From positions 1 through 42,604 of the forward strand of contig CAYGIR010000001.1 in assembly GCA_964349985.1 (NCBI GenBank): a DNA stretch of 42,604 nucleotides, read 5' to 3'. The notes beneath the pieces were generated by a model that was given only the letters and a program-made list of their open reading frames with translations, had not been told where the DNA came from and made no database searches. This stretch comes from an uncultured Candidatus Saccharibacteria bacterium. GTDB taxonomy: Bacteria > Patescibacteriota > Saccharimonadia > Saccharimonadales > CAYGIR01. Below are positions 6,550-32,938 of the stretch, piece after piece (within the stretch, counting starts at the first letter, position 1; each line of letters opens with the position of its first letter). The position numbers were made by a program, and so were the translations under genes.

Positions 6550-7998
6550 TTAGTTAGCGGACATGATTATTTGTCCCCACAGCTGCAGTTCCTCTAGTAA
6601 ATATTGCCGTTGTTTTGTTGTGTCGGGTAACCTTGCTTGCTCTTCTAACTCCATAAAATATCGCATCAACCGATTATTATCACCTGATTCCAGTAATTTA
6701 TGTTTTTTATACTCTTCGAAATGACTATAAATATCGTCTGATTGCTGTTTTGAGTAGTTTTTACTGATATATAGCGGTAATAAGCTGTTTAGCCGAGCGT
6801 CTTGAAATTTCCCCATGTAATTGACCAGGTTTTCTGGGTCCGCCACCACAAGCTTTTTGCTTAATCGCTTATCAGCGTCTGGAATAAAACTATCATACAG
6901 GGCAGCTTCGGGAACTTGTTCTTCATTAAATTTCCCAGCTTGCGCTTGATCTACGCTATCCAATACTTTGATAAATTTTGTATATAGCTTGTCTTTTATC
7001 TTGAGTAATGCAATCTGATGATCATTAATCTGATCCAGGTCAATAGCCAATCTTTTTTGGCTGGCTTGATCTATGACGTTGATTGGTGCCACGGCTGGAC
7101 ATCTATTGAATTGCATTATTTTCAAAGGTATACGGGAGTGCGAGCAAGGTCGCTCCGAGCAGCGATGTTGCCAGCGTTCTAAAAATTCTGCATCACTAAG
7201 TTTTAGTAACTCATCCGGGCTGAAACGTAAATCATAAACTATTACTGCTTGTTTTTTGGGATGCGTCCCCAACACCATTGCCACCGTTGTATGCAAAAAT
7301 GTACTGGAATACTTTCCGCTAGTATAAGTAAAAGGCCCAGGGGTAGTGATCAGCTTCGAAACCAGTTTTTTGTCTCTGTATCGCAATAGATGGTCAAATA
7401 ACTTTGGTTGTTTCTGGCGCAATAACCTGGCTAATTCAATCGTGGCGTTCACGTCACTTAGAGCATCATGTGCTTTATTATGATTGAGGTTGTTGATGCT
7501 TGCCAAATCCTCCAGACGATTGGAGGGTTTACCCTGAGCGGAGTCGAAGGGCCACTTTATGCCATCTGGACGTAACGCCCGTGTCATGCGAACAACATCC
7601 AGCAAATCCCAACGGGAACGCCCATCTAACCAATGCCATTCGTAAGCGTCGTAAAAATTCCGATAATTCAAGAACCTGATGAATTCATCATCAAACCGAA
7701 TATTATTGAAGCCAACAAAAATAGTGCCCGGGGTGGCAATTTCCCGATGAAAGATTGTCAGAAATTCCGCTTCTGTCAGTCCATCGGCAACAGTCATTTG
7801 TGGAGTAATACCAGTTAGCAACACCGCGGTTGGGTCTGGCAGAACGTCCTCCGTTAATTTAATTAGGAAATTATGTGGCTCTCCAATTTCCCGCAAATTC
7901 GCGTCCGTCCTTTGCCCACCAAACTGCATAATACGCTGCTCTCTGGGGCTAAAGCCAGATGTCTCCAAATCATAAAAGTAGAAAGTCGAACTCTGCAT
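6550..7998 (-). CDS. sbcB: Exodeoxyribonuclease I (SbcB)
   Basis: FYFYDLETSGFSPREQRIMQFGGQRTD (Exo I motif), FVGFNNIRFDDEF (Exo II), HDALSDV (Exo III) and the long SH3-like/helical C-terminal part. The start is set at MQSSTF (7998) to avoid the 35-nt overlap with obg implied by the track ORF. Confidence 0.8.
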   Translation of the reverse strand: MQSSTFYFYDLETSGFSPREQRIMQFGGQRTDANLREIGEPHNFLIKLTEDVLPDPTAVLLTGITPQMTVADGLTEAEFLTIFHREIATPGTIFVGFNNIRFDDEFIRFLNYRNFYDAYEWHWLDGRSRWDLLDVVRMTRALRPDGIKWPFDSAQGKPSNRLEDLASINNLNHNKAHDALSDVNATIELARLLRQKQPKLFDHLLRYRDKKLVSKLITTPGPFTYTSGKYSSTFLHTTVAMVLGTHPKKQAVIVYDLRFSPDELLKLSDAEFLERWQHRCSERPCSHSRIPLKIMQFNRCPAVAPINVIDQASQKRLAIDLDQINDHQIALLKIKDKLYTKFIKVLDSVDQAQAGKFNEEQVPEAALYDSFIPDADKRLSKKLVVADPENLVNYMGKFQDARLNSLLPLYISKNYSKQQSDDIYSHFEEYKKHKLLESGDNNRLMRYFMELEEQARLPDTTKQRQYLLEELQLWGQIIMSAN

Positions 7999-19471: not shown

Positions 19472-20386
19472 CTAAAAGGGTCGCTGACCACGTTCAATTT
19501 TCTTGCGAAGCATGCGCAGTTCATAGCGTTTTCCAAGCCAAAAAGTCGTAAGTATCAACGGTATACTAATCGCCGCTGGTTGCCAAACAATGCGCGTTTT
19601 GGGGGTGGTAGTGGTAGCATCATCCTTTTTTTGACCGCCCGACGTACTATCTTGAGTTAACGCACCATTAGCTATGGCAACCAATTGCAAAAACGCACTT
19701 TCACCATTCTTGTCTGTTGCTTTTATGATGACATTGTATATACCAGGGCTATCGTAAGCATGCTCTATATTGAACGTACCGGGTGATTGTTGGCTTTTTA
19801 GATCAAGTGCCTTGCCGTCACCCCAATCTATACTAATAGCATACGGCACGATTCCGCCAGATAATATTATCGGCCAGCTTAAAGATTCGCCAGGATTAGC
19901 TCCGCGTTTTGCATAATTACTGGTCAAGGTTATACGCGCTCCCGTTCCTTGCCTGGAGTCATTGAAGCTTACGGTAACTTTGTTGGAATCTGGTCCGGCT
20001 TGATCCAGCGCATCATAAACCCGAGCAATAAGCTCATCCGTACCCGTAAACAGATCGATGCTGATAGAGAAGCTACCACTTGTACAAATCTGCGAACCGG
20101 CAAATACATTGTTTTTAAATAGTTTTACCAACAAGTCCTTAGGACAAATACCACTAACCGTAATTGGTAGAGTTGTAAACACCTGTCCATCCCTGGGCAA
20201 GCTAATAGTAGCGGCCTGCGTTGGCGGTGGCGCAGAAATCTTCCCTTCGAGCCCAACAGATCCGGTCGCTTGGGCGGCCCACGCGACATCGCCTAAGAGA
20301 ACAAATGCTCCAATACCGATCAACCATGCTATGACCATGAATAGTTTGCGTAATTTATTTAAATCAGCCATGTCCGTAGTACACAC
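19472..20386 (-). CDS. Surface protein with a PKD-like domain and a C-terminal TM anchor
   Basis: N-terminal signal/TM (FMVIAWLIGIGAFVLLGDVAWA), PKD-like ISIDWGDGKALDL...NIEHAYDSPGIYNVIIKATDKNGES, a Thr-rich linker, then ISIPLILTTFWLGKRYELRMLRKK. Confidence 0.6.
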   Translation of the reverse strand: MCTTDMADLNKLRKLFMVIAWLIGIGAFVLLGDVAWAAQATGSVGLEGKISAPPPTQAATISLPRDGQVFTTLPITVSGICPKDLLVKLFKNNVFAGSQICTSGSFSISIDLFTGTDELIARVYDALDQAGPDSNKVTVSFNDSRQGTGARITLTSNYAKRGANPGESLSWPIILSGGIVPYAISIDWGDGKALDLKSQQSPGTFNIEHAYDSPGIYNVIIKATDKNGESAFLQLVAIANGALTQDSTSGGQKKDDATTTTPKTRIVWQPAAISIPLILTTFWLGKRYELRMLRKKIERGQRPF

Positions 20387-20421
20387 CCTACATTAGCATA
20401 ATCCTAAAATAGTTTGAAAGA

Positions 20422-21417
20422 TTAAGCACGTTTCTTTTTATACGAACGAAAAACTTTCTTTCTGTACAGTATATAAGCTAGACCAGCCAATACTACAACC
20501 AAAATCACAACTATTAGCAAAAGCCATGTCGGTATGTACCAAAATGTACTTCTATGCGTAACCACTTCTCCGCCATTTCCGTAAGCCACCGAAACAATCA
20601 AACTGTACCTACCTGGTCGACGAATATTCTTGATGGGATCTGAAAAACTGCGCGAAGAATTGGCTAATATGATACCTTTTGGATCAGTATTATTAATTTC
20701 GTATCCGTAAACCTCTTTGCCCAAACTATCGTTTACAGTAACGCGTCCAAACGGTCTCGAAAAACCATTACCCATATTCTTAATAGCCACTACTGCCGTA
20801 TTAGGGCTTCTTATAAAAAATGTTCCGCCCTGCTTATCACGCTTCACTCCCGCACTAGTTATCTCGATTTGCTGATTTATGTCACCAGGCACATCAACAA
20901 AGACAAGATGCGCGACGCTTGCCGTTAAAGCTACCTGCCTTTGTTCGTTACGCACTTCAGACCCTCTAGGTATACTGGTGTATCTCAAGGCCCCAAAATA
21001 CGCGCCAGGGGATGCGCCAACAGGCATACTTATGGTTTGTTTAACTTCTTTGGTCTCTCCAGGCATTAAATCCAGGTCATTCATATCAGTAAGCATTGAT
21101 CGGAGCGAATTTTGTGTTGGCGGCTGTGTTTGATCTACAATAATTTGTGGGGTTCCACTTATACCATCTGAATTAAAATCATTTAATGATACCTTTATGG
21201 TTAGTGGATTTGGCGTAATGTTCTTTAGAAAGACGGAGAACACCTTTTGTTCGCCTGGTTGCATCACCAATTCTGTTCTAGTTGGTGATAGATATAAAGC
21301 ACTACCACCTCCCTGTTGGTTAGAGTCCTGTGCATGCACAGCCGAGATAGTCGGCAATAGCATAAGAACCGTAAAAAAAAGCGCTGATAATACTAACAAG
21401 GGTTTACGCAATGACAC
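20422..21417 (-). CDS. Secreted two-domain beta-sandwich protein with a C-terminal TM anchor, resembling DUF916/DUF3324 (CscA-type)
   Basis: GTG start with GGAGG 8 nt upstream and signal peptide ...PTISAVHA. Motifs: LVMQPGEQKVFSVFLKNITPNPLTIKVSLNDF, GAYFGALRY, GRYSLIVSVAY. C-terminal TM LLLIVVILVVVLAGLAYILY followed by RKKVFRSYKKKRA. The family call is by eye only. Confidence 0.5.
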   Translation of the reverse strand: MSLRKPLLVLSALFFTVLMLLPTISAVHAQDSNQQGGGSALYLSPTRTELVMQPGEQKVFSVFLKNITPNPLTIKVSLNDFNSDGISGTPQIIVDQTQPPTQNSLRSMLTDMNDLDLMPGETKEVKQTISMPVGASPGAYFGALRYTSIPRGSEVRNEQRQVALTASVAHLVFVDVPGDINQQIEITSAGVKRDKQGGTFFIRSPNTAVVAIKNMGNGFSRPFGRVTVNDSLGKEVYGYEINNTDPKGIILANSSRSFSDPIKNIRRPGRYSLIVSVAYGNGGEVVTHRSTFWYIPTWLLLIVVILVVVLAGLAYILYRKKVFRSYKKKRA

Positions 21418-21558
21418 TTATATATCCTCCAATTTATCTAGCATTCTTATGATTTATTAGTATAAGCACCTAGCCAAGGTCTGTCAATTTACATAATCCG
21501 AAGTTAAATGATCTACTGTTGTATAATACACAATATGATAGTTACTTGGATGATGGAT

Positions 21559-22602
21559 TCAAAAAGCGGCTACCGCAATATAGGTTAGCGTTGTAGTATA
21601 TATACCTGGTTGCTGATCGGGAGATATATTAATAATATAACTCGCTGTAAAATAGTTCATTTCTGATGGCATAGGGGCTGATGTTAATACTTGCGGACTA
21701 CCGAAAAAGAACTTATTTGAAATAGCATAATTAGGCGTTATTATTCCAACCCCCCCACCAAGAGGATCAGAGCCAACAACTGGGTTCGAGTTGGATCTTA
21801 GATTCATACCGAACTGACTAACCCCCGGTTGCGAAGCCTGTTGTGTAAGTAATCCCGGTATACTATTATTTCCTGAGGTCATGGTAGATCCCGTGATACT
21901 GGTCGAATAGCCTCCGGGATCATTTGTGGCAACCGCGAACTGTGATGTTAAAAAACTAGGTCGGACAATCGAAAGCTCTCCAAAGTTGAGCGAGAAACCT
22001 GATACGGTTTCACAATTAGTTGTAACCGTGACACCAACACAGAATGTCAGATAAGGTGGCACAAAACCGCTAACCGAAAGTGGTTCGACTGTAGCCAGAG
22101 CAATAGCCCCACTATCAGTTATCAAGCCGGTACCATCACTACTTGCGTACGTCGCCATGCGGACATATACGGTACTTGAAGGTAAATCATGATTTTTGAC
22201 ATTATCAAATGTAAATGAAACGGGTATATTCCCCAATAAGCTAGGGATGCGACTAATCACAATTCTGTTAACAGTACTGACCGGATCAATCACAAACCCA
22301 GTACCTCCTGTCTGATTACTCAGACCTGCTAAACTAGCAGAAAAGCCCGCAGGTGCCGTGCAAACAGTACCGACAAATGGCGTATTACTACAATATTCAA
22401 ATTCAATTGATCCAACCAAGCTAGATGTACCGATAGTAAAATCGAAACGATGGGTAGACATGGCACCAGGCATCGAGGTAGAAACCGTTACGGATCTATT
22501 ACTTAAAGTAGCAGCACTTACAGGCATAAACGACATTAGGGGGGTAACGACTATCAGTAAACACCCTAATATACAGATAGTTAATCTACTTAACCGTTGC
22601 AT
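21559..22602 (-). CDS. Secreted beta-rich protein, paralog A of the surface cluster
   Basis: Signal peptide ending VSA, mature N-terminus ATLSNRSVTVSTSMPGA, paired Cys (EYCSNTPFVGTVCT; TFCVGVTVTTNCE), and C-terminus GIYTTTLTYIAVAAF. Confidence 0.65.
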   Translation of the reverse strand: MQRLSRLTICILGCLLIVVTPLMSFMPVSAATLSNRSVTVSTSMPGAMSTHRFDFTIGTSSLVGSIEFEYCSNTPFVGTVCTAPAGFSASLAGLSNQTGGTGFVIDPVSTVNRIVISRIPSLLGNIPVSFTFDNVKNHDLPSSTVYVRMATYASSDGTGLITDSGAIALATVEPLSVSGFVPPYLTFCVGVTVTTNCETVSGFSLNFGELSIVRPSFLTSQFAVATNDPGGYSTSITGSTMTSGNNSIPGLLTQQASQPGVSQFGMNLRSNSNPVVGSDPLGGGVGIITPNYAISNKFFFGSPQVLTSAPMPSEMNYFTASYIINISPDQQPGIYTTTLTYIAVAAF

Positions 22603-22630
22603 GTAATATTCAGCCCCGTACTATCGTAAC

Positions 22631-24070
22631 TTAGAAAGTAGGAGTAGCAATGAAAGTGCTTGCAACGGTATATGTACCAGTAGGCGTAGTAGCGGCGGCG
22701 GCGGCACCAAAACGTAGCTTGACTAACTCATCATCTACAACAGTCGTAGAGCTAATTATTGCCTGTGCCACTCCGGTATCCCTCCATGCCATAAGATTAC
22801 CAGCTTCGGTGTTCTCGCAATTATCAGTCGCTACAGTATCCTGCAATTGAGCTAGAGTAGTATCACCGTTAGCATAGGAAGAGAAAAATCCTCCTGATGT
22901 CCCCGTGCCATTAGAACCAGCCGTTCCTAGATTAGATGTTGTACCAGCTGTTGTAGTGGCGGAATCGGTCACGCATACAATTTGCATCCCAAAACGTTCT
23001 GTACCGATGGCTAATGTTTCGCCAGCAGTATTATCAGTACTCACGAAACAGGAGTCACCAACAAATGCCGCTGACGCGTTACACGTACTACCGGCCACCC
23101 TAAAGGACTGTAGCTGGTTAGTACCGCTCGTCGCAGGAGTAGCATAGTAGCTCAAGGTCACCCCGTTAGCGGCATTTGTATTAATCATTGCGGCACCAAA
23201 TCGAGCGTTCCCAAGTGCTGTTGGGGGGGAGTTAGCAACTGGCGATCTAGCGATACTTGTATTATCAATAACGCCAAGATCTACGTTGGAACTGGCGGTT
23301 GCTTCCGCAGCCGTACAATCAGTTGGAAAATTTGTCGCTGCAGTACCTACGGTAGCTGATGACCCAGCAGCATCATCAAGCGCGAATACGCAAAATACCA
23401 ATCGCTCCTGTACCCTTCCAGTAACCGTGAGTTGATTAACTATAGAAGCTGCAACCGTACCAGTATCTACGGCTGTCGCAAAGCTAGAATCAGAGTATGT
23501 TGTAATACGTACGTAAATTTGTTCGTTATTCCCCGCCGCGATAATGGGGTTGCTGATACTGTTAATCACGAAGGTTTTAGCACCAGCAGCTTCGTTAGCA
23601 GCTTGAGTACGTTGTACGCAGTACATGGTTGCTACTCCAGATCCACCATCACCTTCTGAACAGGCACCCAAATCCGCGCCAGAATATTCTGTAAATGCCG
23701 TAGCATTGGTACCGGTGAAAGCACCTGGAGCGGCAGTTACGTTCGACACATCGATCTTTTCTGAGGCAAGCGGGCTACCGTCAGTGCCTGGCAGTACACA
23801 AGTCCCTAATGGTGTATTGCAAAATTGGAACGTCATGGATTGAATAGCCGCAACCGTAATAGTTGTAAACCCGAATGAATAGTTCACTCCGGTTGCGTCA
23901 GGCTGTGAAGTCGCAATGGTCACGCTACGACTTGATAAAGTCGCGGCGCTAGCACTACTCTGAAATAATAATGGTAGCAAACCACTCACAGATAACATTA
24001 AAGCTAAAGTTACAAGTCTTGCTTTTCGCCCTATCTGGCGGAAATTATAATCTTTGAAAAAATCTATCAT
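22631..24070 (-). CDS. Secreted beta-rich protein, paralog B of the surface cluster
   Basis: Signal peptide ending ASA, mature N-terminus ATLSSRSVTIATSQPDA, paired Cys (QFCNTPLGTCV; VFCVFALDD...TDCT), and C-terminus GTYTVASTFIATPTF. Rich in Ala, Thr, Gly and Ser. Confidence 0.65.
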   Translation of the reverse strand: MIDFFKDYNFRQIGRKARLVTLALMLSVSGLLPLLFQSSASAATLSSRSVTIATSQPDATGVNYSFGFTTITVAAIQSMTFQFCNTPLGTCVLPGTDGSPLASEKIDVSNVTAAPGAFTGTNATAFTEYSGADLGACSEGDGGSGVATMYCVQRTQAANEAAGAKTFVINSISNPIIAAGNNEQIYVRITTYSDSSFATAVDTGTVAASIVNQLTVTGRVQERLVFCVFALDDAAGSSATVGTAATNFPTDCTAAEATASSNVDLGVIDNTSIARSPVANSPPTALGNARFGAAMINTNAANGVTLSYYATPATSGTNQLQSFRVAGSTCNASAAFVGDSCFVSTDNTAGETLAIGTERFGMQIVCVTDSATTTAGTTSNLGTAGSNGTGTSGGFFSSYANGDTTLAQLQDTVATDNCENTEAGNLMAWRDTGVAQAIISSTTVVDDELVKLRFGAAAAATTPTGTYTVASTFIATPTF

Positions 24071-24161
24071 GCTATATTACATTCCTTTTTGTTTATTTTT
24101 TATTAATCATCGATTCATTTATAGCATAAGTATATTACTAAAACAAGTACTTATCCACATA

Positions 24162-24950
24162 TCAGTAGGTTGGGACAACAATAAGATCGTGACGCATAGT
24201 ATAAGTTCCAGCCTTAGAAATATTGCTCGCTTTAGCGATATAACTTATCGTATAATTAGTTTTCCCCACTCCTTGATTACCGGCAGTTGCCTGCGAACGC
24301 GCTATGATATCGCCAACCCCGTATTTAAATTGATTGGTGGTCTGATAGCCATTAGCCACTTGTCCGTCAGCGAAACTATTGTCTGGGTCATTTGTAAGAT
24401 TCGCTCCAAAAACCCCGGGAGATGTATTGCTCACCAAATTTATACCAAATTCCTCAACGCTAGTACTACCGGATGGTGGTCCTTGCGTGCCTTTTGCCGT
24501 TAGCGAATTATTGCTTTCGCTCGTCGGTGGCTGGCTAGCCGTCACAACCGTATAGCCAGAAGATGTATAAGTTCTAACATAAAATGTACAATTGCACGTT
24601 CCGCCCTGTGATGAAATATACGATGTTGTTGAGGCTGATAAAGTACCCAAATCTACATTCGGTCCAGTTATCCCAACCTCAAGAAAGGGCTCCCCCGCGG
24701 TTAAGTATCCTGCCTCAGAGTCATAATTAGTACTGGATCCCGAGCCAACGCCCAGACCACCAACCGAGCTCTGAGCTCGATAAGATCCCGCAGTGGCATC
24801 AAGCTCCCCGCCGGTGCCAAACATTACTTGATTGACCTGATAATTACCGGATGAATATGTTTGCGCCAAGGCACCCCTAGGAGTAGCCAACAACAATACA
24901 ACCAAGAGATTTATAAAACCCAACCATTTCATGACTATCAATAATAACAC
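24162..24950 (-). CDS. Secreted beta-rich protein, third related member of the surface cluster
   Basis: Signal peptide ...PRGALAQ, an N-terminal S-x-NY/SY repeat region (SSGNYQVNQVMFGTGGELDATAGSYRAQSSVGGLGVGSGSSTNYDSEAGY), EEFGINL as in the paralogs, and C-terminus GTYTMRHDLIVVPTY. The GTG start directly follows the upstream TAG; an alternative ATG is at 24932. Confidence 0.6.
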   Translation of the reverse strand: MLLLIVMKWLGFINLLVVLLLATPRGALAQTYSSGNYQVNQVMFGTGGELDATAGSYRAQSSVGGLGVGSGSSTNYDSEAGYLTAGEPFLEVGITGPNVDLGTLSASTTSYISSQGGTCNCTFYVRTYTSSGYTVVTASQPPTSESNNSLTAKGTQGPPSGSTSVEEFGINLVSNTSPGVFGANLTNDPDNSFADGQVANGYQTTNQFKYGVGDIIARSQATAGNQGVGKTNYTISYIAKASNISKAGTYTMRHDLIVVPTY

Positions 24951-25637
24951 CTATCTGGTCTGAAAGGTATCCATGATAGCTTGTAGTTCTTGTCCATCCA
25001 AAGTCGCCTTGAGACTACGATAATAGATAAAATAGGCTACTATTTCTCCGCCAGGTCGCTTAATACGCAATGAAGTATCGCCACCCTTCAAGCCAACCAC
25101 AACAGTGTATTCAGTACCATCAACATCGCAAAGCATAGTAACCCCGCCAATAACAACTTGTTGTCGACTTTGTTTATTTGAATTATTTAAGTCCTTACCG
25201 CAATGATCAGACACGGAATCTGAAGTTACTATTCCGTTAATATCAAAGCCTATGGGTAATACTCGTGTTGCCTCCTGCGTCTCGGGAGATAGGCTCTGAT
25301 TGACATATATTTTCAATTCGCTTTCAACCAAACCGAATCTAAAGTTACGATAAACGAACGTACTCGCGGTTGATTCATTGTTGATAGATCTCCATGTTTT
25401 GGCTGCCTGAAATTGAAAATATTGAGTACTAAACACTTCCGTAGAAGCAAGATATTTCGATTTGACTATTTGCGTTGGATTTGAAGGCCGTTGTGATTGT
25501 TTATTTGCCCTATAGCTATCCTGTACAAAATACCCGCCTAGCAATAAAAACAATACAATGACAAAAAAGATTATTTTGTGGGCATATTTAGAGATAAGCA
25601 ACCGATAATGACTCTGTTCATACCTATATCTAGACAT
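24951..25637 (-). CDS. Hypothetical N-terminally anchored protein, first gene of the surface cluster
   Basis: AGAGG RBS, TM IIFFVIVLFLLLGGYFV, then a ~180 aa extracytoplasmic domain. No family recognised. Confidence 0.5.
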   Translation of the reverse strand: MSRYRYEQSHYRLLISKYAHKIIFFVIVLFLLLGGYFVQDSYRANKQSQRPSNPTQIVKSKYLASTEVFSTQYFQFQAAKTWRSINNESTASTFVYRNFRFGLVESELKIYVNQSLSPETQEATRVLPIGFDINGIVTSDSVSDHCGKDLNNSNKQSRQQVVIGGVTMLCDVDGTEYTVVVGLKGGDTSLRIKRPGGEIVAYFIYYRSLKATLDGQELQAIMDTFQTR

Positions 25638-25840: not shown

Positions 25841-26830
25841 ATGGAAAATCAACCGTCGGACGAAAATGAACTGAATACGTTGGAGGAGTCAAGCACAGAG
25901 CTTGACGGTCAAGAACCAACCACGACTGGGACAACTAACGAACCTGTGTCTACCGCTGTTCCTAGCCCAAAAAAACAATTTAGCCTCAAGGGCGGCATTC
26001 AGGGCTTAATTGGACGTCTTAATATATATTTGCTCATATTCGTGCTAATCATCGTACTGACCACCGGCTTTACAATCGCGAGTATCCAGCGAAACAAAAA
26101 AGAAGACACTCCGGTGTCCATAGAAACTCAGGCTCTAACAGAAGAAACCCTCAAAAAGCTTAATTCCAGCGATGCCAAAATTGGTGATCCAAAACAAACA
26201 TTATTGGTAGAGTCCAACGCAATATTCGCTGGCAAAGTATTGATAAAGGATAGCCTTGACGTAGCCGGAACCATAAAAGTTGGCGGAGCACTAAGTTTGC
26301 CTGGATTAACGGTCGCCGGAAATAGCACTTTGGACCAGATTCAAGGCAATAGCTTGACTATATCCGGAGATGCCAACATTCAAGGTCAGCTGACAGCCCA
26401 AAAAGGCATCACAGTCACTGGGGGCGGTAGTTTTGGCGGACCAATATCCGCGCCACAAATCACAATCCAGAGCCTTCAACTAAGTGGAGATTTGCAGCTA
26501 CAACGCCATATTGATGCCGGCGGCACGGCTCCAGGCAAAACCGATGGTCCCAAACTCGGTTCTGGTGGCACATCCAGCGTCAGCGGAACAGACACAGCAG
26601 GTACCGTAACAATTAATCTAGGGGGCAACCTTCCGCAAGGTGATGGCTGTTTTGTAACTATTAACTTCACCCAAAAATTCAACGATATTCCACATGTTGT
26701 AATTACGCCGATTGGACCCGGTGCCGCTGGTCTAAACTATTATGTCAACCGAACGAATACAAATTTTCAGGTTTGCGCTACCAATGCTTCATCCGGTAGT
26801 TTCTCATTCGACTATATAGTCATCGATTAA
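25841..26830 (+). CDS. Membrane-anchored protein with a beta-helix-like repeat stalk and a C-terminal H-type-lectin-like domain
   Basis: Acidic, Thr-rich N-terminus and TM IYLLIFVLIIVLTTGFTIASI. Repeats: VLIKDSLDVAGTIKVGGALSLPGLTVAGNSTLDQIQGNSLTISGDANIQGQLTAQKGITVTGG. The C-terminus VTINFTQKFNDIPHVVITPIG...VNRTNTNFQVCA...FSFDYIVI fits the H_lectin pattern by eye. Confidence 0.5.
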   Translation: MENQPSDENELNTLEESSTELDGQEPTTTGTTNEPVSTAVPSPKKQFSLKGGIQGLIGRLNIYLLIFVLIIVLTTGFTIASIQRNKKEDTPVSIETQALTEETLKKLNSSDAKIGDPKQTLLVESNAIFAGKVLIKDSLDVAGTIKVGGALSLPGLTVAGNSTLDQIQGNSLTISGDANIQGQLTAQKGITVTGGGSFGGPISAPQITIQSLQLSGDLQLQRHIDAGGTAPGKTDGPKLGSGGTSSVSGTDTAGTVTINLGGNLPQGDGCFVTINFTQKFNDIPHVVITPIGPGAAGLNYYVNRTNTNFQVCATNASSGSFSFDYIVID

Positions 26831-27114
26831 ACATCCAGAAACACGACGACCTCGTCTTTTTTTACATGCATAATGCCACGTGTAATTGTCACCTTTTCTT
26901 CTTGCTCGCCATTGCGTATAACAATCTCACAAGGGCTTAAAAGCGTCATGAAATTGTGATGACCCGCCAAAATATCAAACGGACCAGTGAGATTTTCGGC
27001 CGATATGCTTTCTGCCTGCCCATCGTAATAGACTTTAAACGGAGCATAGACTTTGACATGCATATCACTCAATGATTTTGGTGCTTGTGTCTTAGTTACT
27101 AATTCATCGGACAT
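26827..27114 (-). CDS. atpC: F1 epsilon-like subunit (beta-sandwich domain only)
   Basis: The 95 aa sequence VKVYAPFKVYYDGQAESISAENLTGPFDILAGHHNFMTLLSPCEIVI...ITRGIMHVKKDEVVVFLD matches the epsilon N-terminal domain. There is no C-terminal helical hairpin. Confidence 0.7.
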   Translation of the reverse strand: MSDELVTKTQAPKSLSDMHVKVYAPFKVYYDGQAESISAENLTGPFDILAGHHNFMTLLSPCEIVIRNGEQEEKVTITRGIMHVKKDEVVVFLDV

Positions 27115-27127
27115 AATTAATAATCTG

Positions 27128-29294
<2,167 letters not shown>

Positions 29295-29298
<4 letters not shown>

Positions 29299-30815
29299 TT
29301 TGTTGCCTCTTCTTTATCCTTGGCAGCAGATTTTGTTGTAACATCAAACTCAGTAGGGGGCGGAACAACAACGGGTGCCGGAGACGCGCCTTTTAGTTCT
29401 ACCCTTACTTTAGCCGATAACTCGTCTCGTAGCTTGTCATACTTTGTGTCATCAGTAATTTTTCCTGCGTATTCAGAAACATGTAGTTTCAAGGCTGAGG
29501 TATCCAAAACATCGCCATCATTGAGGTTCAGAATAATATCTAGCATTAGTTGCTGTGCCATGAACGAATAAGTATCTGAGGGGCTCTGCGTGAGCATCTC
29601 AAAAATGTATTTACCAGTTTGGAGAGCCTTCTTAGCCTCCAGTGCAAGTTCTGAGCCAAAGTGTGAAAACTCCTCCGCCTGACGATAATCAGCCAGAAGT
29701 TTTAACGTTTGGGCCGCCAGAGCTTTTTGACGCTTGTTGTGTCCAACCCCACCCACGCGAGTCACGCTCAGACCTATATTAATTGCCGGACGTATACCAT
29801 TTCTAAAAATATCCATGTCTAAAATCCATTGCCCATCTGTAATCGACATAATGTTAGTAGGTAAATATGCGGTTATATCACCACCGGCGGCATTCACTAG
29901 AGGCAAACTGGTCAAATGCGCACCATTAGAGTCCAAACGCCCGGCTCGTTCAAGCAGGCTGGAGTGCGCAAAGAACATATCGCCAGGATATGAATCACGC
30001 CCCGGACTGATGCCACTCATCAAGGCCACCTCTCTATAAGCATGTGCGTGACTAGTGAGATCATCATAAATAATGATTGTATCTTGGGCCAGTTGTTGCC
30101 AAAGATACTCTGCCATAGCCACTCCCACATACGGTGCTATATAGCTCATGATCAAGGACTCAAACATAGTGCTCACTATAACGATAGCCTTTTCCAGCCC
30201 ACCGTTTTCTTTGAGGCGGGTCAGCAAAGTGTCCACATCGCTTCGACGTTTGGCAATCAGTACATACACCACTACTTGATCGGTATTTTTTTGATTGATA
30301 GTAAGTTGGGTTACGAGCGTACTTTTGCCAGATTTGCCATCTCCCAATAGTGCCATACGTTGTCCGCGTAAGACCGGAAAAAGAGCATCGATAACCGTTA
30401 CACCACTTTCGAGTTGCGTATCAAGCAATTTACGAGCATACAATGGTGGCGCCGTATTAAAGACCGGCCAGACCGCGTCGGCCGCGATTGGACCCTTACC
30501 ATCCATTGGTTCGCCCATAACAGTTATCACTCGACCAACAAAATCCTTCCCCACCTTGCAAACCAATTCTTGATGTTGTACAACTCCAACCATGCCAGGT
30601 CGTAACGTAATCGCACCTAAATGCAACACAACGACATAATCTGTCTGAATTTGATTTACAAAACCCTTACTACCATCTTCGAACATAACAAGAGCATGAA
30701 TATTACAAGGCTGCAAACCACGAACACGCACCAAAAACTTGTCTACCGCGATAACTTCACCAACTGGATTCCCTCCGGCGACAAGCTTATCAAAATGTTG
30801 ATTACCGGAATTCAT
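29295..30815 (-). CDS. atpA: F1 alpha-like subunit (divergent P-loop, C-terminal extension)
   Basis: The P-loop is GDGKSGKST, where canonical alpha has GDRQTGKT. Also [40 protein letters not shown] and ITDGQWILD. There is an extra ~35 aa Pro/Lys/Glu tail. Confidence 0.85.
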
Positions 30816-31399
30816 GCGACAGATCCTTCAGTCACAGTTACTGTAGCTACCGGTTTGGCCGGTTCAATGAGGTGCAGTTTAGAAATAAGTAACTCCTTTT
30901 GTGCGCTGAATCTGGTACGCAAACTAAAATCATGATATTTATTTGTAGTACGAACTACACAACCCGCACCAATGTTAGGATGCAGACCTATCTGCAATAA
31001 TACGAGTGGGTGAATCTGCTGACGAATCCATGTAATCAAACGTTGCTGAAACATCGGCGAAGGATCCGTACTAAAACTAATGTGCAAGGTTGGAGCAGTC
31101 GAACGAACAGCTACCAAAAAACGCATGAGCAATTGCCGGTCGGCTTGCTGTAACATATTGAGCTTGTTGATCGCAACGACTTCATCAAACAAACGGCTTG
31201 ATTTAGGAAGTTGGATAGGGTTTCCTGTCTGCCGAATAGCCGCTTGACCTAGAAAGTTATCCACTGCCTCAGCTTCTTGAACCAATCGTCCGACATCACT
31301 ATGCGTAACAACCCCCAATGGTAGTTGCAATCCTGTCGTGACAGATTTTGATATGAATTCATTCGAGTTAGCAGATTGAGGTATCGGTTCAACTCCCAT
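30812..31399 (-). CDS. Delta/OSCP-like subunit (only the C-terminal part is recognisable)
   Basis: It occupies the delta position between the b-like and alpha genes. The C-terminal [30 protein letters not shown] resembles the OSCP motif (d..l.GG.vv..g....D.S....l). The N-terminal half is not recognisably OSCP. Confidence 0.5.
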
Positions 31400-32009
31400 T
31401 GGTGATATCCTCTATAATGTCCTTTTTGTTCTCATTCAGCTCACTCAAAATGTATTCCAACTGATCATTCAGGTCAATTTGATTGCCAATAGCTGCCAAA
31501 ACGTAATGATTGACGATATCCGCCATGTTTTCTTCAAAGTGCTTTAGTAAACGTGATTTTTCATTGGCAATCTCTTGGGCCATCTGTTGACTCATCATTT
31601 GTCGTTGTTGCTCAATAGCCGCTTGCGTTTTGGTAATTGATTCTAGTGCTAATTCCTTGGCATCAGATATGGATTCTTCGTATTTAGCAAACTCTTCTTG
31701 TAATTTTTGAGTAATTTCCGACTTCATGTATTCGTTTAGCTGAGAAGTGGTCAATCTTAGATCTTGCTGAAGAAACATCGCGTTTTCACCAATTATTTTT
31801 TCAAAGTGCAACCGCCCCCGATTACGTAGCTCCTCCCGGAACTCCTCATTAAATAAGTGTTCCGTGTCTCTTTCTGCTAGTTCAGTCAGTGATTCACTGG
31901 AGCCAGTGGACTTGTGGCTTGCCTTTAATTGGGTAGCTAAATACACAAAAGCGGCTGTAGCGGCCCCGATTATACCGAGTGTTAGTATAAGTCCGTATAT
32001 GTCAGTCAT
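31389..32009 (-). CDS. b-like stator-stalk subunit (single N-terminal TM plus long coiled coil)
   Basis: TM LILTLGIIGAATAAFVYLA followed by ~170 aa of Glu/Gln/Lys-rich heptad-like helix. It occupies the atpF position. Confidence 0.55.
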   Translation of the reverse strand: MTDIYGLILTLGIIGAATAAFVYLATQLKASHKSTGSSESLTELAERDTEHLFNEEFREELRNRGRLHFEKIIGENAMFLQQDLRLTTSQLNEYMKSEITQKLQEEFAKYEESISDAKELALESITKTQAAIEQQRQMMSQQMAQEIANEKSRLLKHFEENMADIVNHYVLAAIGNQIDLNDQLEYILSELNENKKDIIEDITNGS

Positions 32010-32032: not shown

Positions 32033-32881
32033 TTATAACCTTAAGATTAAATATACTCCAAAAACTCCCGTAATGAAAATAATTATACCAGTCAAAACTA
32101 CTTGTAGCATACCGCGGATAATGGATTTTCGACTTAAAGGGTTACGACCTATAGAGATAATCCCACTACGCACCCCACTAAACAATAAACTACCCGCCAC
32201 AACTGCGGTAATCCCGAAAACAAGAACGCTCACGTATACCCTAGCGGCATTAACCGGCTTACCAGCTATTGTTTCGGCAACTTTTCGTAAAGCACCAGGT
32301 AGGTTTGGTTCTACTGCTTTGAGTAGAGGGTTTTTGGCAATTCCTACATCAACTTCAATACGCCCGATATCCACCCGGTGTGATGCTCCGGTGCTATCCT
32401 TGACATCCATAGTACTGATAACCCCTTTGCTGCCATCAAATTCGGCAACCGCTCTACCGATTACGAATGGTTGAATCGTCCCAGCTTTCATGCCAATACC
32501 CGCTAAAGCTGATACTACAATATAATCACCAATTACAATCTTACCCGCTTGAGTGCTCACCAAAACTTCACTACGGCCATTATTCGCGACGAAAACTTTC
32601 TGCCCATCGCTTGCCAAGGATATCGGGGAATCGTTGGAATTTACCACGACTCCATGCATGTGTTCAGAAGCGTCACTATCTACCGGCTCAACTTTTGTGA
32701 CATCGTTCTTTTTCAATCGCACAATCATGCCACGTTGCAGGGCTTGATCCGCATAATAACCTGTTGTAACAGATTGCGCGCTAATCGGCGAATAAACACT
32801 GGCAGCAATCAACAACTGTAGTCCAATCAATGCGAGTATGCGTTGCCAAGTAAGATAGTTCTTTATTTTTGTCTTGATCAT
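32033..32881 (-). CDS. Signal-peptide protein: ~190 aa extracytoplasmic beta-rich domain fused to a C-terminal c-subunit-like helical hairpin lacking the carboxylate
   Basis: Signal peptide ...SVYSPISAQS. The C-terminus VLVFGITAVVAGSLLFSGVRSGIISIGRNPLSRKSIIRGMLQVVLTGIIIFITGVFGVYLILRL has two Gly-rich TM helices joined by an R-N-P loop, like F/V-type c subunits. Neither helix contains a D or E. Confidence 0.55.
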   Translation of the reverse strand: MIKTKIKNYLTWQRILALIGLQLLIAASVYSPISAQSVTTGYYADQALQRGMIVRLKKNDVTKVEPVDSDASEHMHGVVVNSNDSPISLASDGQKVFVANNGRSEVLVSTQAGKIVIGDYIVVSALAGIGMKAGTIQPFVIGRAVAEFDGSKGVISTMDVKDSTGASHRVDIGRIEVDVGIAKNPLLKAVEPNLPGALRKVAETIAGKPVNAARVYVSVLVFGITAVVAGSLLFSGVRSGIISIGRNPLSRKSIIRGMLQVVLTGIIIFITGVFGVYLILRL

Positions 32882-32909: not shown

Positions 32910-32938
32910 ATTATAGACTTAATTAACCAGCTTCGCAA
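32910..32938 (-). promoter_or_regulatory. Candidate promoter of the F1-like operon
   Basis: The minus strand reads TTGCGA-17 nt-TATAAT. The -35 lies inside the 3' end of the upstream cysteine desulfurase gene, and the -10 is 28 nt upstream of the 282-aa gene ATG. Confidence 0.55.

Follow-up and report, generated by a model that had tools for sequence, protein, structure and literature searches.

What can an F1-like ATPase be doing when its operon has neither a subunit a gene nor an ion-binding subunit c, and opens with a gene for a putatively secreted protein that ends in a membrane hairpin? This question is raised by a 42,604-nucleotide stretch of DNA (hereafter the window) from an uncultured bacterium of Candidatus Saccharibacteria, a group of tiny parasites (assembly GCA_964349985.1, contig CAYGIR010000001.1, positions 1 to 42,604). 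The protein, here called X282, is a single open reading frame (ORF) of 282 residues at 32033..32881 on the minus strand, the first gene of the operon. An earlier note, made from the letters of the window alone, had quoted its sequence, which matches the ORF exactly; the strand, not given there, is added here. We propose tentatively, and at slightly below an even chance, that Saccharibacteria have a second F1-like ATPase, one that is not chemiosmotic, and that X282 serves as its membrane and output subunit ("X0"). The motor would probably drive a surface fibre instead of making ATP.

The layout of the operon provides the starting point. Its order on the minus strand is X282, b-like, delta-like, alpha, gamma, beta and epsilon, and X282 sits exactly where atpB and atpE would be. 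Only 23 nt separate X282 from the b-like gene, and this gap carries a ribosome-binding-like site (GGGGTGGG). The gene upstream of X282 in the window is NifS-like; there is no a gene there. For synteny, 20-kb loci from 80 GTDB Saccharibacteria genomes, 75 of them informative, were compared together with the 42.6-kb window. The order X282-b-delta-alpha-gamma-beta-epsilon was kept in 75/75 informative loci, and it was also found in orthologues with only 31-35% identity (P0204, P0260, P0253, P0264 and P0180). Neither the cluster nor the 10 kb around it in more than 80 loci contained an a or c gene, and a small hidden Markov model of subunit c gave no match in 1.38 Mb of fetched loci. In two loci (L090 and L091) the X282-led operon is kept despite quite different upstream neighbours; the link between X282 and the operon is therefore not just genome-wide synteny. 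The earlier note had expected orthologues always to lie beside b, delta and alpha genes. This holds for every sampled orthologue down to 31% identity, but not for distant paralogues (28-37% identity), which occur without F1 genes.

The six genes that follow X282 on the minus strand are recognizable as F1-type subunits and stalk proteins. The b-like protein (31389..32009; 206 residues) has one N-terminal membrane helix (residues 3-26) and a long helical region, and matches PF00430 at E = 1e-3 and TIGR03321 at E = 6e-3. The delta/OSCP-like protein (30812..31399; 195 residues) matches NF004402 (F0F1 delta) at E = 0.03 over residues 25-169; its orthologue in L091 has an unmarked PF00213 OSCP match. 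The alpha-like protein (29295..30815; 506 residues; PF00006) scores 378 bits on the atpA model (cut-off 484), the gamma-like protein (28435..29298; 287 residues; PF00231) 89.5 bits on TIGR01146 (cut-off 194), and the beta-like protein (27128..28435; 435 residues; PF00006) 407.5 bits on the atpD model (cut-off 462.85). The epsilon-like protein (26827..27114; 95 residues; PF02823) scores 47.8 bits on TIGR01216 (cut-off 67.25) and covers model positions 2-79 of 130. All four fall under the NCBIfam equivalog cut-offs, and by these scores the F1-like subunits are diverged from canonical F1 and unlike those of a standard ATP synthase. Beta is nevertheless nearer to canonical F1 beta (344 bits) than to the beta of the Mycoplasma mobile G1-ATPase (284 bits).

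Several of these subunits are altered in specific places. Epsilon is a beta-sandwich only, without the C-terminal regulatory/inhibitory helices. In alignments with PDB sequences, the DELSEED motif of beta is degenerate (NELSAAD) and the protein is about 30 residues shorter than usual, while alpha has an N-terminus about 10 residues shorter than the canonical one and a Pro-rich C-terminal extension. The N-terminal region of alpha binds delta in canonical enzymes. Taken together, the alterations in epsilon, beta and alpha suggest changed regulation and changed attachment of the stalk.

X282 itself is a member of a real gene family and not a chance ORF, as judged by the large number of homologous clusters and the conserved hairpin. 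At E <= 1e-3, the family comprises 1,471 clusters at 90% identity, and 4,663 representatives at 50% identity match at the same threshold (479 at E <= 1e-30). The homologues with a source label are nearly all "hypothetical", with organism names in Saccharimonadales or Patescibacteria. The protein is widely conserved and under strong purifying selection. The window member has no Pfam family above threshold; scans of Pfam, NCBIfam and PHROGs gave no significant match for the hairpin or the whole protein, and no NCBIfam model was matched at E <= 0.1.

The architecture of X282 largely agrees with what the earlier note had described. Residues 1-36 (32774..32881) contain a K-rich start, a hydrophobic segment (residues 15-35, ending ...SPISAQS) and a conserved A-Q-(A/S) cleavage-like site, of which A35 and Q36 are invariant in the family alignment; from hydropathy, this N-terminus is read as a signal peptide that would be cleaved. 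It is followed by a beta-rich ectodomain and two membrane helices (216-237 and 258-280 by hydropathy). In the AlphaFold2 model of the whole protein, which has a predicted local distance difference test (pLDDT) value of 79.2, strands extend across residues 39-183 and long helices span 212-246 and 248-281; the hairpin modelled separately reached a pLDDT of 90.6. The hydropathy bears out the signal peptide of that description, and the model its beta-rich ectodomain. The loop between the helices (residues 238-257, RSGIISIGRNPLSRKSIIRG) has 5 Lys/Arg and 0 Asp/Glu. The positive-inside rule, taken with the signal peptide, predicts a cytoplasmic RNP loop and places both the ectodomain and the C-terminus outside the cell; this is the topology that had been proposed before, and an outward-facing RNP loop was not predicted.

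The two-helix hairpin (residues 212-282; 32036..32248, minus strand) is the best-conserved part of X282 and has the shape of an F-type subunit c in AlphaFold2 models, hydropathy and Foldseek comparisons. Its near-invariant cytoplasmic tip, I-G-R-N-P-L, includes R246-N247-P248 (codons at 32138..32146, minus strand) in the family alignments. G-R-N-P-L occurs in almost every intact family member, with one SRNPM exception, and I244, I254 and Y277-L-x-L280 are also strongly conserved. The peak of conservation is at the cytoplasmic tip and not in mid-membrane, which indicates a cytoplasmic partner.

The ion-binding carboxylate of subunit c is absent from X282, and none is conserved across the family. 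Asp and Glu are lacking throughout residues 212-282, as the earlier note had reported for both helices. At the canonical place of the carboxylate, 18 residues past the loop, X282 has T264/G265/I266, and no conserved polar mid-membrane residue was found in 258 family hairpins. Q260, 12 residues past RNP, is Glu in some distant members and Lys or Arg in others. It was considered as a displaced ion site and rejected; since Lys or Arg can replace it, this is an interface position and not an ion-binding carboxylate.

Whether X282 belongs to the subunit c family is a separate matter. As in AtpE (PF00137), its two helices, each about 35 residues long, form a membrane hairpin whose ends both face outward and whose short cytoplasmic loop carries R-(N/Q)-P, and its gene directly precedes b in an operon that continues with delta, alpha, gamma, beta and epsilon. 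Unlike AtpE, X282 has no mid-membrane Asp/Glu, no GxGxGxG motif and no Pfam or HMMER match; it adds a signal peptide and an ectodomain of about 160 residues; there is no a gene beside it; and paralogues exist outside ATPase operons. In helix 1, which the earlier note had called Gly-rich, no GxGxG run was found, only the scattered small residues A229, G236, S243 and G245. At E <= 10, PF00137 gave 0 matches for the window hairpin and for 21 family hairpins, whereas control c subunits matched it in 8/8 cases at E <= 1e-19. A hairpin profile searched against 177,635 PDB sequences returned no c subunit at E <= 10, just chance matches to membrane proteins.

Profile and structure comparisons gave more. 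Aligned by hhalign with c profiles, which were seeded with eight or nine c sequences confirmed as PF00137 members, the hairpin reached a probability of 2-6% (P = 0.006-0.03) over 22-26 loop columns only. In one such alignment (probability 6%, P = 0.006) the RNP of X282 is in register with the RQP of subunit c. The score of 18.5 was higher than that of 200/200 column-shuffled controls (mean 9.2, standard deviation 2.0, maximum 16.7) and of both reversed controls; with an 84-sequence c profile, P weakened to 0.03. The significant profile match to PF00137 or c subunits that the earlier note had called for was thus not found, with Pfam and HMMER giving none and hhalign a marginal one. In a Foldseek search of the hairpin alone against 350,542 PDB chains, ranks 1-38 were rotary-ATPase c subunits with TM-scores mostly of 0.7-0.86, and the first unrelated protein was at rank 39. 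The top matches, almost exclusively F-type c subunits, had a root-mean-square deviation of 1.3-1.8 A over 65-70 residues at 14-26% identity. In sum, the hairpin is c-like in form, gene position and loop motif; its sequence does not establish that it belongs to the c family or descends from subunit c, and the ion site that defines the family is absent. Of the c-ring-like, non-translocating rotor that the earlier note had suggested, the shape, the place, the tip and the missing carboxylate stand; the c profile match is lacking, and the paralogues without F1 genes do not fit.

The ectodomain (residues 37-195; 32297..32773, minus strand) provided a different kind of clue. In its AlphaFold2 model it appears to have the fold of phage cement/decoration proteins. 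Foldseek against PDB found the Pam3 cement protein at E = 6e-5 and also the proteins of HFTV1, BB1, T1 and TW1 and lambda gpD; against BFVD, a set of predicted viral structures, it found many phage proteins with E down to 6e-9, including preneck-appendage, Mtd N-terminal, DUF2190 and tail proteins. Pfam searches agree in part: window X282 matches PF23982 at E = 0.068 with 13.4 bits, under the cut-off of 27, while its relatives P0423 (30.3 bits) and P0491 (25.4 bits) lie above and just below this cut-off, and family members match PF22758 and PF09956 ("phage cement") at E of about 1e-3. The models therefore point to a relationship of the ectodomain with a group of proteins of common fold, comprising phage cement, decoration and minor capsid proteins (PF23982 XM1 gp53, PF22758 E217 gp24/Pam3 gp6, PF09956, lambda gpD-like) and the N-terminal anchor domains of phage fibres and appendages. 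In phages, such domains are small, usually trimeric, and attach to other structural proteins. Unlike them, X282 is tethered to the membrane through its C-terminal hairpin, and its gene belongs to a cellular ATPase operon with no further phage genes nearby.

The partner of such a domain may be encoded next door. Directly past epsilon, and convergent with it (the 3' ends overlap by 4 nt), lies a gene on the plus strand (25841..26830) for a membrane-anchored tail-fibre-like protein of 329 residues. The N-terminus of this protein is acidic and disordered, and is followed by one membrane helix (lying within residues 52-84), a beta-helix with a weak bactofilin match in Pfam and an H-lectin-like end, also a weak Pfam match. 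Matches to the fibre gene by tblastn occur in 54 loci, mostly directly past epsilon and convergent; the gene that follows epsilon in L091, on the same strand, encodes a tail-fibre-like protein longer than 1,100 residues. The 329-residue protein is accordingly a candidate partner of X282.

The stand-alone paralogues of X282 show the same company. All six that were examined (6/6) adjoin surface-fibre or pilin genes: three are beside genes for membrane-anchored tail-fibre-like proteins, one beside a tailspike-like gene, one beside a weakly similar beta-helix fibre-like gene and one beside Pam-pilin-like genes. P0258 lies beside a 731-residue tailspike-like protein, and P0268 beside a membrane-anchored beta-helix fibre-like protein that weakly resembles the window fibre (blastp E = 0.095). 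P0241 neighbours a homologue of the 329-residue window protein (34% identity, E = 8e-42), while P0240 adjoins two homologues of a 479-residue pilin-like protein of the window. P0479 is next to a protein of 2,933 residues with a cytoplasmic N-terminus, one membrane helix and a membrane-proximal motif as in other fibres. The sixth is a second X282 copy in L090, 3 kb from the X282-led ATPase operon and next to a fibre gene; no second copy was found in the window or within 10 kb in the 80 GTDB loci. The recurrent pairing of the X282 family with fibre genes is thus observed directly, and the genomes link the whole family with Pam pili and with tail-fibre-like proteins anchored in the membrane, a connection that the earlier note had missed.

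The two-gene unit of a paralogue and a fibre or pilin gene recurs in L084, L085, L088, L089, L090 (3-1706) and L094 (10001-19849). In several of these units the partner is a fibre of 200 to 2,933 residues anchored by an N-terminal membrane helix. Three fibres have a membrane-proximal motif in common ("...VNGQL..S..L.L.P...P....G..YYD...N....Y.G.."); two are beside stand-alone paralogues (L090 and L094), and one is past epsilon (L091).

Rates of evolution connect the same genes. Rate covariation was calculated over 30 loci, with the divergence of two housekeeping neighbours regressed out. The X282 hairpin covaried with beta (0.65), gamma (0.64), alpha (0.62), b (0.57) and epsilon (0.47), and with the tail-fibre gene (0.67); the values were 0.27 for a pilin gene and 0.12 (p = 0.14) for an independent neighbour gene used as a control, and 0.94 for alpha against beta as a reference. 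Mantel tests gave p <= 0.0005 for the hairpin against beta, gamma, epsilon, b and the fibre, the alpha pair being outside the permutation test. The tail-fibre gene covaried with beta at 0.74 and with the ATPase subunits overall at 0.52-0.77. X282, the F1-like subunits and the fibre protein are therefore one co-evolving block.

A possible mechanism can be outlined from these results. An alpha3-beta3-gamma-epsilon head would hydrolyse ATP while held at the membrane by the b/delta-like stalk. Gamma and epsilon would dock on the cytoplasmic I-G-R-N-P-L tips of an oligomer of X282 hairpins, which may have the form of a c-ring but would be unable to bind ions. The ATPase would move no ions, because the cluster has neither an a subunit nor an ion-binding c subunit. 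A torque or a push would instead cross the membrane to the phage-cement-like ectodomains, which may hold or act on the tail-fibre-like protein in the membrane and perhaps also on the Pam pili encoded nearby. We infer the oligomerization of X282, its contact with gamma/epsilon, rotation as opposed to a non-rotary push, and the identity of the extracellular target. A more ambitious form of the proposal, a rotary surface appendage driven by ATP, is rather improbable: here the F1-like motor held by b/delta would spin an X282 crown that grips the tail-fibre-like protein or the base of a Pam pilus, turning or reeling a host-contact fibre, and the stand-alone pairs of X282 paralogue and fibre would be interchangeable "tool heads" with the same GRNPL docking tip.

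Several observations weigh against X282 as the output subunit of this ATPase. There is no statistically significant sequence link between X282 and subunit c, since the hhalign probability is at most 6%, and the Foldseek E-values of the hairpin against c subunits are only 0.05-1, as a helical hairpin carries little fold information. Published tables give VirB2 pilins the "subunit c" fold label too, and one X282 paralogue was named VirB2 by JGI. Paralogues with the same architecture and a GRNPL or SRNPM tip (28-37% identity) exist without F1 genes, so the tip may serve purposes other than docking gamma/epsilon. Saccharibacteria keep their gene order well, with the NifS-like and TatD-like upstream genes conserved too, and part of the conservation of the X282 neighbourhood may be plain synteny. 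The rate covariation can reflect the common history of the block instead of physical contact. Furthermore, with b and delta but no a subunit, the stator has no known partner in the membrane.

Three other explanations were weighed. X282 may belong to the F1-like complex as a stator or anchor, either replacing subunit a as the partner of the b membrane helix or clamping gamma/epsilon, with a non-rotary push like that of FliI/FliJ on the type III export gate. We consider this fairly unlikely, at about half the weight of the output subunit we prefer. The cluster offers the b membrane helix no other partner; the strong conservation of Y277-L-x-L280, at the extracellular end of helix 2, would suit a protein-protein contact within the membrane; the Gly-x-Gly motifs of ring packing are absent; and phage cement proteins are trimeric, and trimers are no natural fit to a ring of 8-15 subunits. 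The strongest conservation, however, is at the cytoplasmic tip with its c-type R-N-P, where c subunits meet gamma/epsilon, the geometry of the hairpin agrees with c subunits, and the central (gamma/epsilon) and peripheral (b/delta) stalks are both kept, as a rotary device needs. It is unlikely, too, that X282 is a fibre-associated surface or membrane protein, for example a socket or anchor for tail-fibre-like proteins, which works independently of the ATPase and just shares an operon with a spare F1, itself either soluble or seated on a canonical a/c sector encoded elsewhere in the genome. Such a socket would account for the six paralogues with the same architecture and GRNPL tip that lie outside ATPase operons beside fibre or pilin genes, and for an ectodomain that is a binding domain of the phage cement type; it also accords with some complete Saccharibacteria genomes, which have a canonical a/b/c set and a second alpha/beta/gamma set. 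Yet X282 heads the operon in every sampled orthologue down to 31% identity, even where the upstream genes differ, and merely 23 nt lie between it and b. The operon has its own b and delta and is therefore unlike a head that borrows another stalk. Moreover, the covariation of X282 with the ATPase subunits is 0.47-0.65 against 0.12 for the control gene, and its conservation peaks at a cytoplasmic tip that a simple anchor does not need.

It is highly improbable that the cluster encodes an ordinary F1Fo ATP synthase with overlooked a/c genes, or that X282 is a degenerate c subunit without a special role, even though papers routinely label these genes "F-type ATPase" or "ATP synthase". There is no room or ORF for a or c in the cluster, the window or any locus; X282 is under strong purifying selection, is widely conserved and has no carboxylate; the F1 subunits are under the equivalog cut-offs; and the canonical operon of Southlakia looks different and is not beside fibre or pilus genes. 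An ordinary synthase with missed genes was rejected on the missing a/c ORFs, the missing carboxylate and the divergent F1 subunits.

A precedent for X282 as the output subunit of an F1-like ATPase is known from Mycoplasma. Additional F1-like sets that lack a, b, c and delta, the Type 2 and Type 3 "F1-like X0" ATPases, are associated there with the legs used in gliding or with the MIB-MIP system for antibody cleavage. One of their subunits starts with a signal peptide, continues in a large ectodomain and ends in two membrane helices (PMC3369863, PMC12994834). The M. mobile gliding G1-ATPase and the MIB-MIP ATPase resemble the X282 cluster in being divergent extra alpha/beta/gamma/epsilon sets without a or c that are linked to cell-surface machinery, and "Protein 5" (MMOB1650, MSC_0620/MMCAP2_0577), as compared by description, has the same architecture as X282. 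As in the Mycoplasma systems, a canonical F1Fo may coexist with it in some genomes according to KEGG orthology (KO) counts (PMC12592800). The differences are also clear. The Saccharibacteria cluster retains b-like and delta-like stalk subunits and has neither the 12-helix membrane protein nor the small cytoplasmic protein of Mycoplasma; X282, with 282 residues, is far smaller than Protein 5 (roughly 770-1,100); and the alpha and beta of the window score higher on the canonical atpA/atpD models than on Mycoplasma models. A second likeness is to FliI/FliJ on the FlhA export-gate ring of type III secretion, where the ATPase is related to F1, has a gamma-like stalk and works from the cytoplasmic side on a membrane assembly other than Fo. 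This comparison is an analogy only: the subunits differ, there is no homology to X282, and here a full alpha3-beta3-type gene set is present with epsilon, b and delta.

Published genomes of Saccharibacteria contain indirect traces of a second ATPase. Southlakia epibionticum has a canonical operon (AtpI-a-c-b-delta-alpha-gamma-beta-epsilon) that is dispensable for growth and is not beside fibre genes (PMC10633639). According to the KO counts in Table S5 of PMC12592800, alpha/beta/gamma are present twice but a/b/c only once in three of the five complete genomes of Saccharimonadales (Ca. S. aalborgensis, GWC2_44_17 and Ca. M. amalyticus), and the extra set, known from these counts, may be of the X282 kind; TM7x and RAAC3 have one set of each, and several CAILAD01 bins have alpha/beta/gamma without any a/b/c. 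In the part of that survey available to us, the doubled counts are passed over without comment. Troman et al. read the association of Pam and ATPase genes as a link to ATP production. In the literature searched we found only such traces, with no description of an ATPase lacking a and c in Saccharibacteria or Patescibacteria and no mention of the missing a/c genes or of the X282 protein.

The distinction matters for how these organisms are understood. Genome surveys of Saccharibacteria and other ultra-small bacteria of the candidate phyla radiation count these alpha/beta/gamma genes as "F-type ATP synthase" and then argue about proton motive force, respiration and energy coupling. If the cluster has no ion path, such energy inferences are mistaken as far as these genes are concerned. 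What was recently reported as a "coupling of Pam pilus assembly to ATP production" would in that case be a coupling to an ATPase that does mechanical work, and Saccharibacteria would join Mycoplasma as the second lineage to have turned an F1 head to tasks at the cell surface. Because the peripheral stalk is kept here and the small output subunit resembles a c subunit stripped of its carboxylate, the X282-type system may be a compact one for asking how rotary torque serves work other than ion transport. It may also offer a lead on how epibionts handle their host-contact fibres. Cultivable relatives exist, for example Ca. Mycosynbacter amalyticus, on which cryo-electron tomography has already been done.

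The neighbourhood of the fibre gene includes a Pam-pilus-like operon (19472..25637, minus strand), whose layout resembles the pam operon described in Ca. Mycosynbacter amalyticus (Troman et al. 2026). Its ORFs have no Pfam matches; we read them as Pam-like from architecture and neighbourhood, not from a sequence match, and infer a link to X282. Three secreted pilin-like proteins (262, 479 and 347 residues) have a common N-terminal "L-S-x-R-S-V-T" motif and similar hydrophobic C-termini (...VPTY, ...ATPTF and ...AVAAF). The operon also encodes a chaperone-like protein of 331 residues with a signal peptide and a C-terminal membrane helix by hydropathy, an N-terminally anchored membrane protein of 228 residues, and a protein of 304 residues with a hydrophobic stretch near the C-terminus that was seen by eye only and not called by hydropathy. 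PDB sequence searches with the pilin-like and fibre-like neighbours gave no match.

A few smaller observations concern annotation and expression. The automatic JGI names of three family members (P0479, P0488 and P0395) conflict: "ATP synthase subunit c/K", "type IV secretory pathway VirB2 component (pilin)" and "membrane protein YphA (DoxX/SURF4)". This indicates that the X282 hairpin draws weak matches from several hairpin families; being mutually contradictory, the labels were not used as evidence. A kinship of X282 with AtpI/AtpZ was rejected because no Pfam signal was found. In L086 (5480-7072), a divergent orthologous operon, no epsilon was called past beta; tblastn finds an epsilon-like stretch at 6816-7046, so the gene is probably a short one that was left uncalled. 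Finally, a consensus scan by pattern match found a promoter-like site (32910..32938, minus strand; TTGCGA, a 17-nt spacer and TATAAT; 10/12 matches), which lies 29-57 nt upstream of the start codon of X282.

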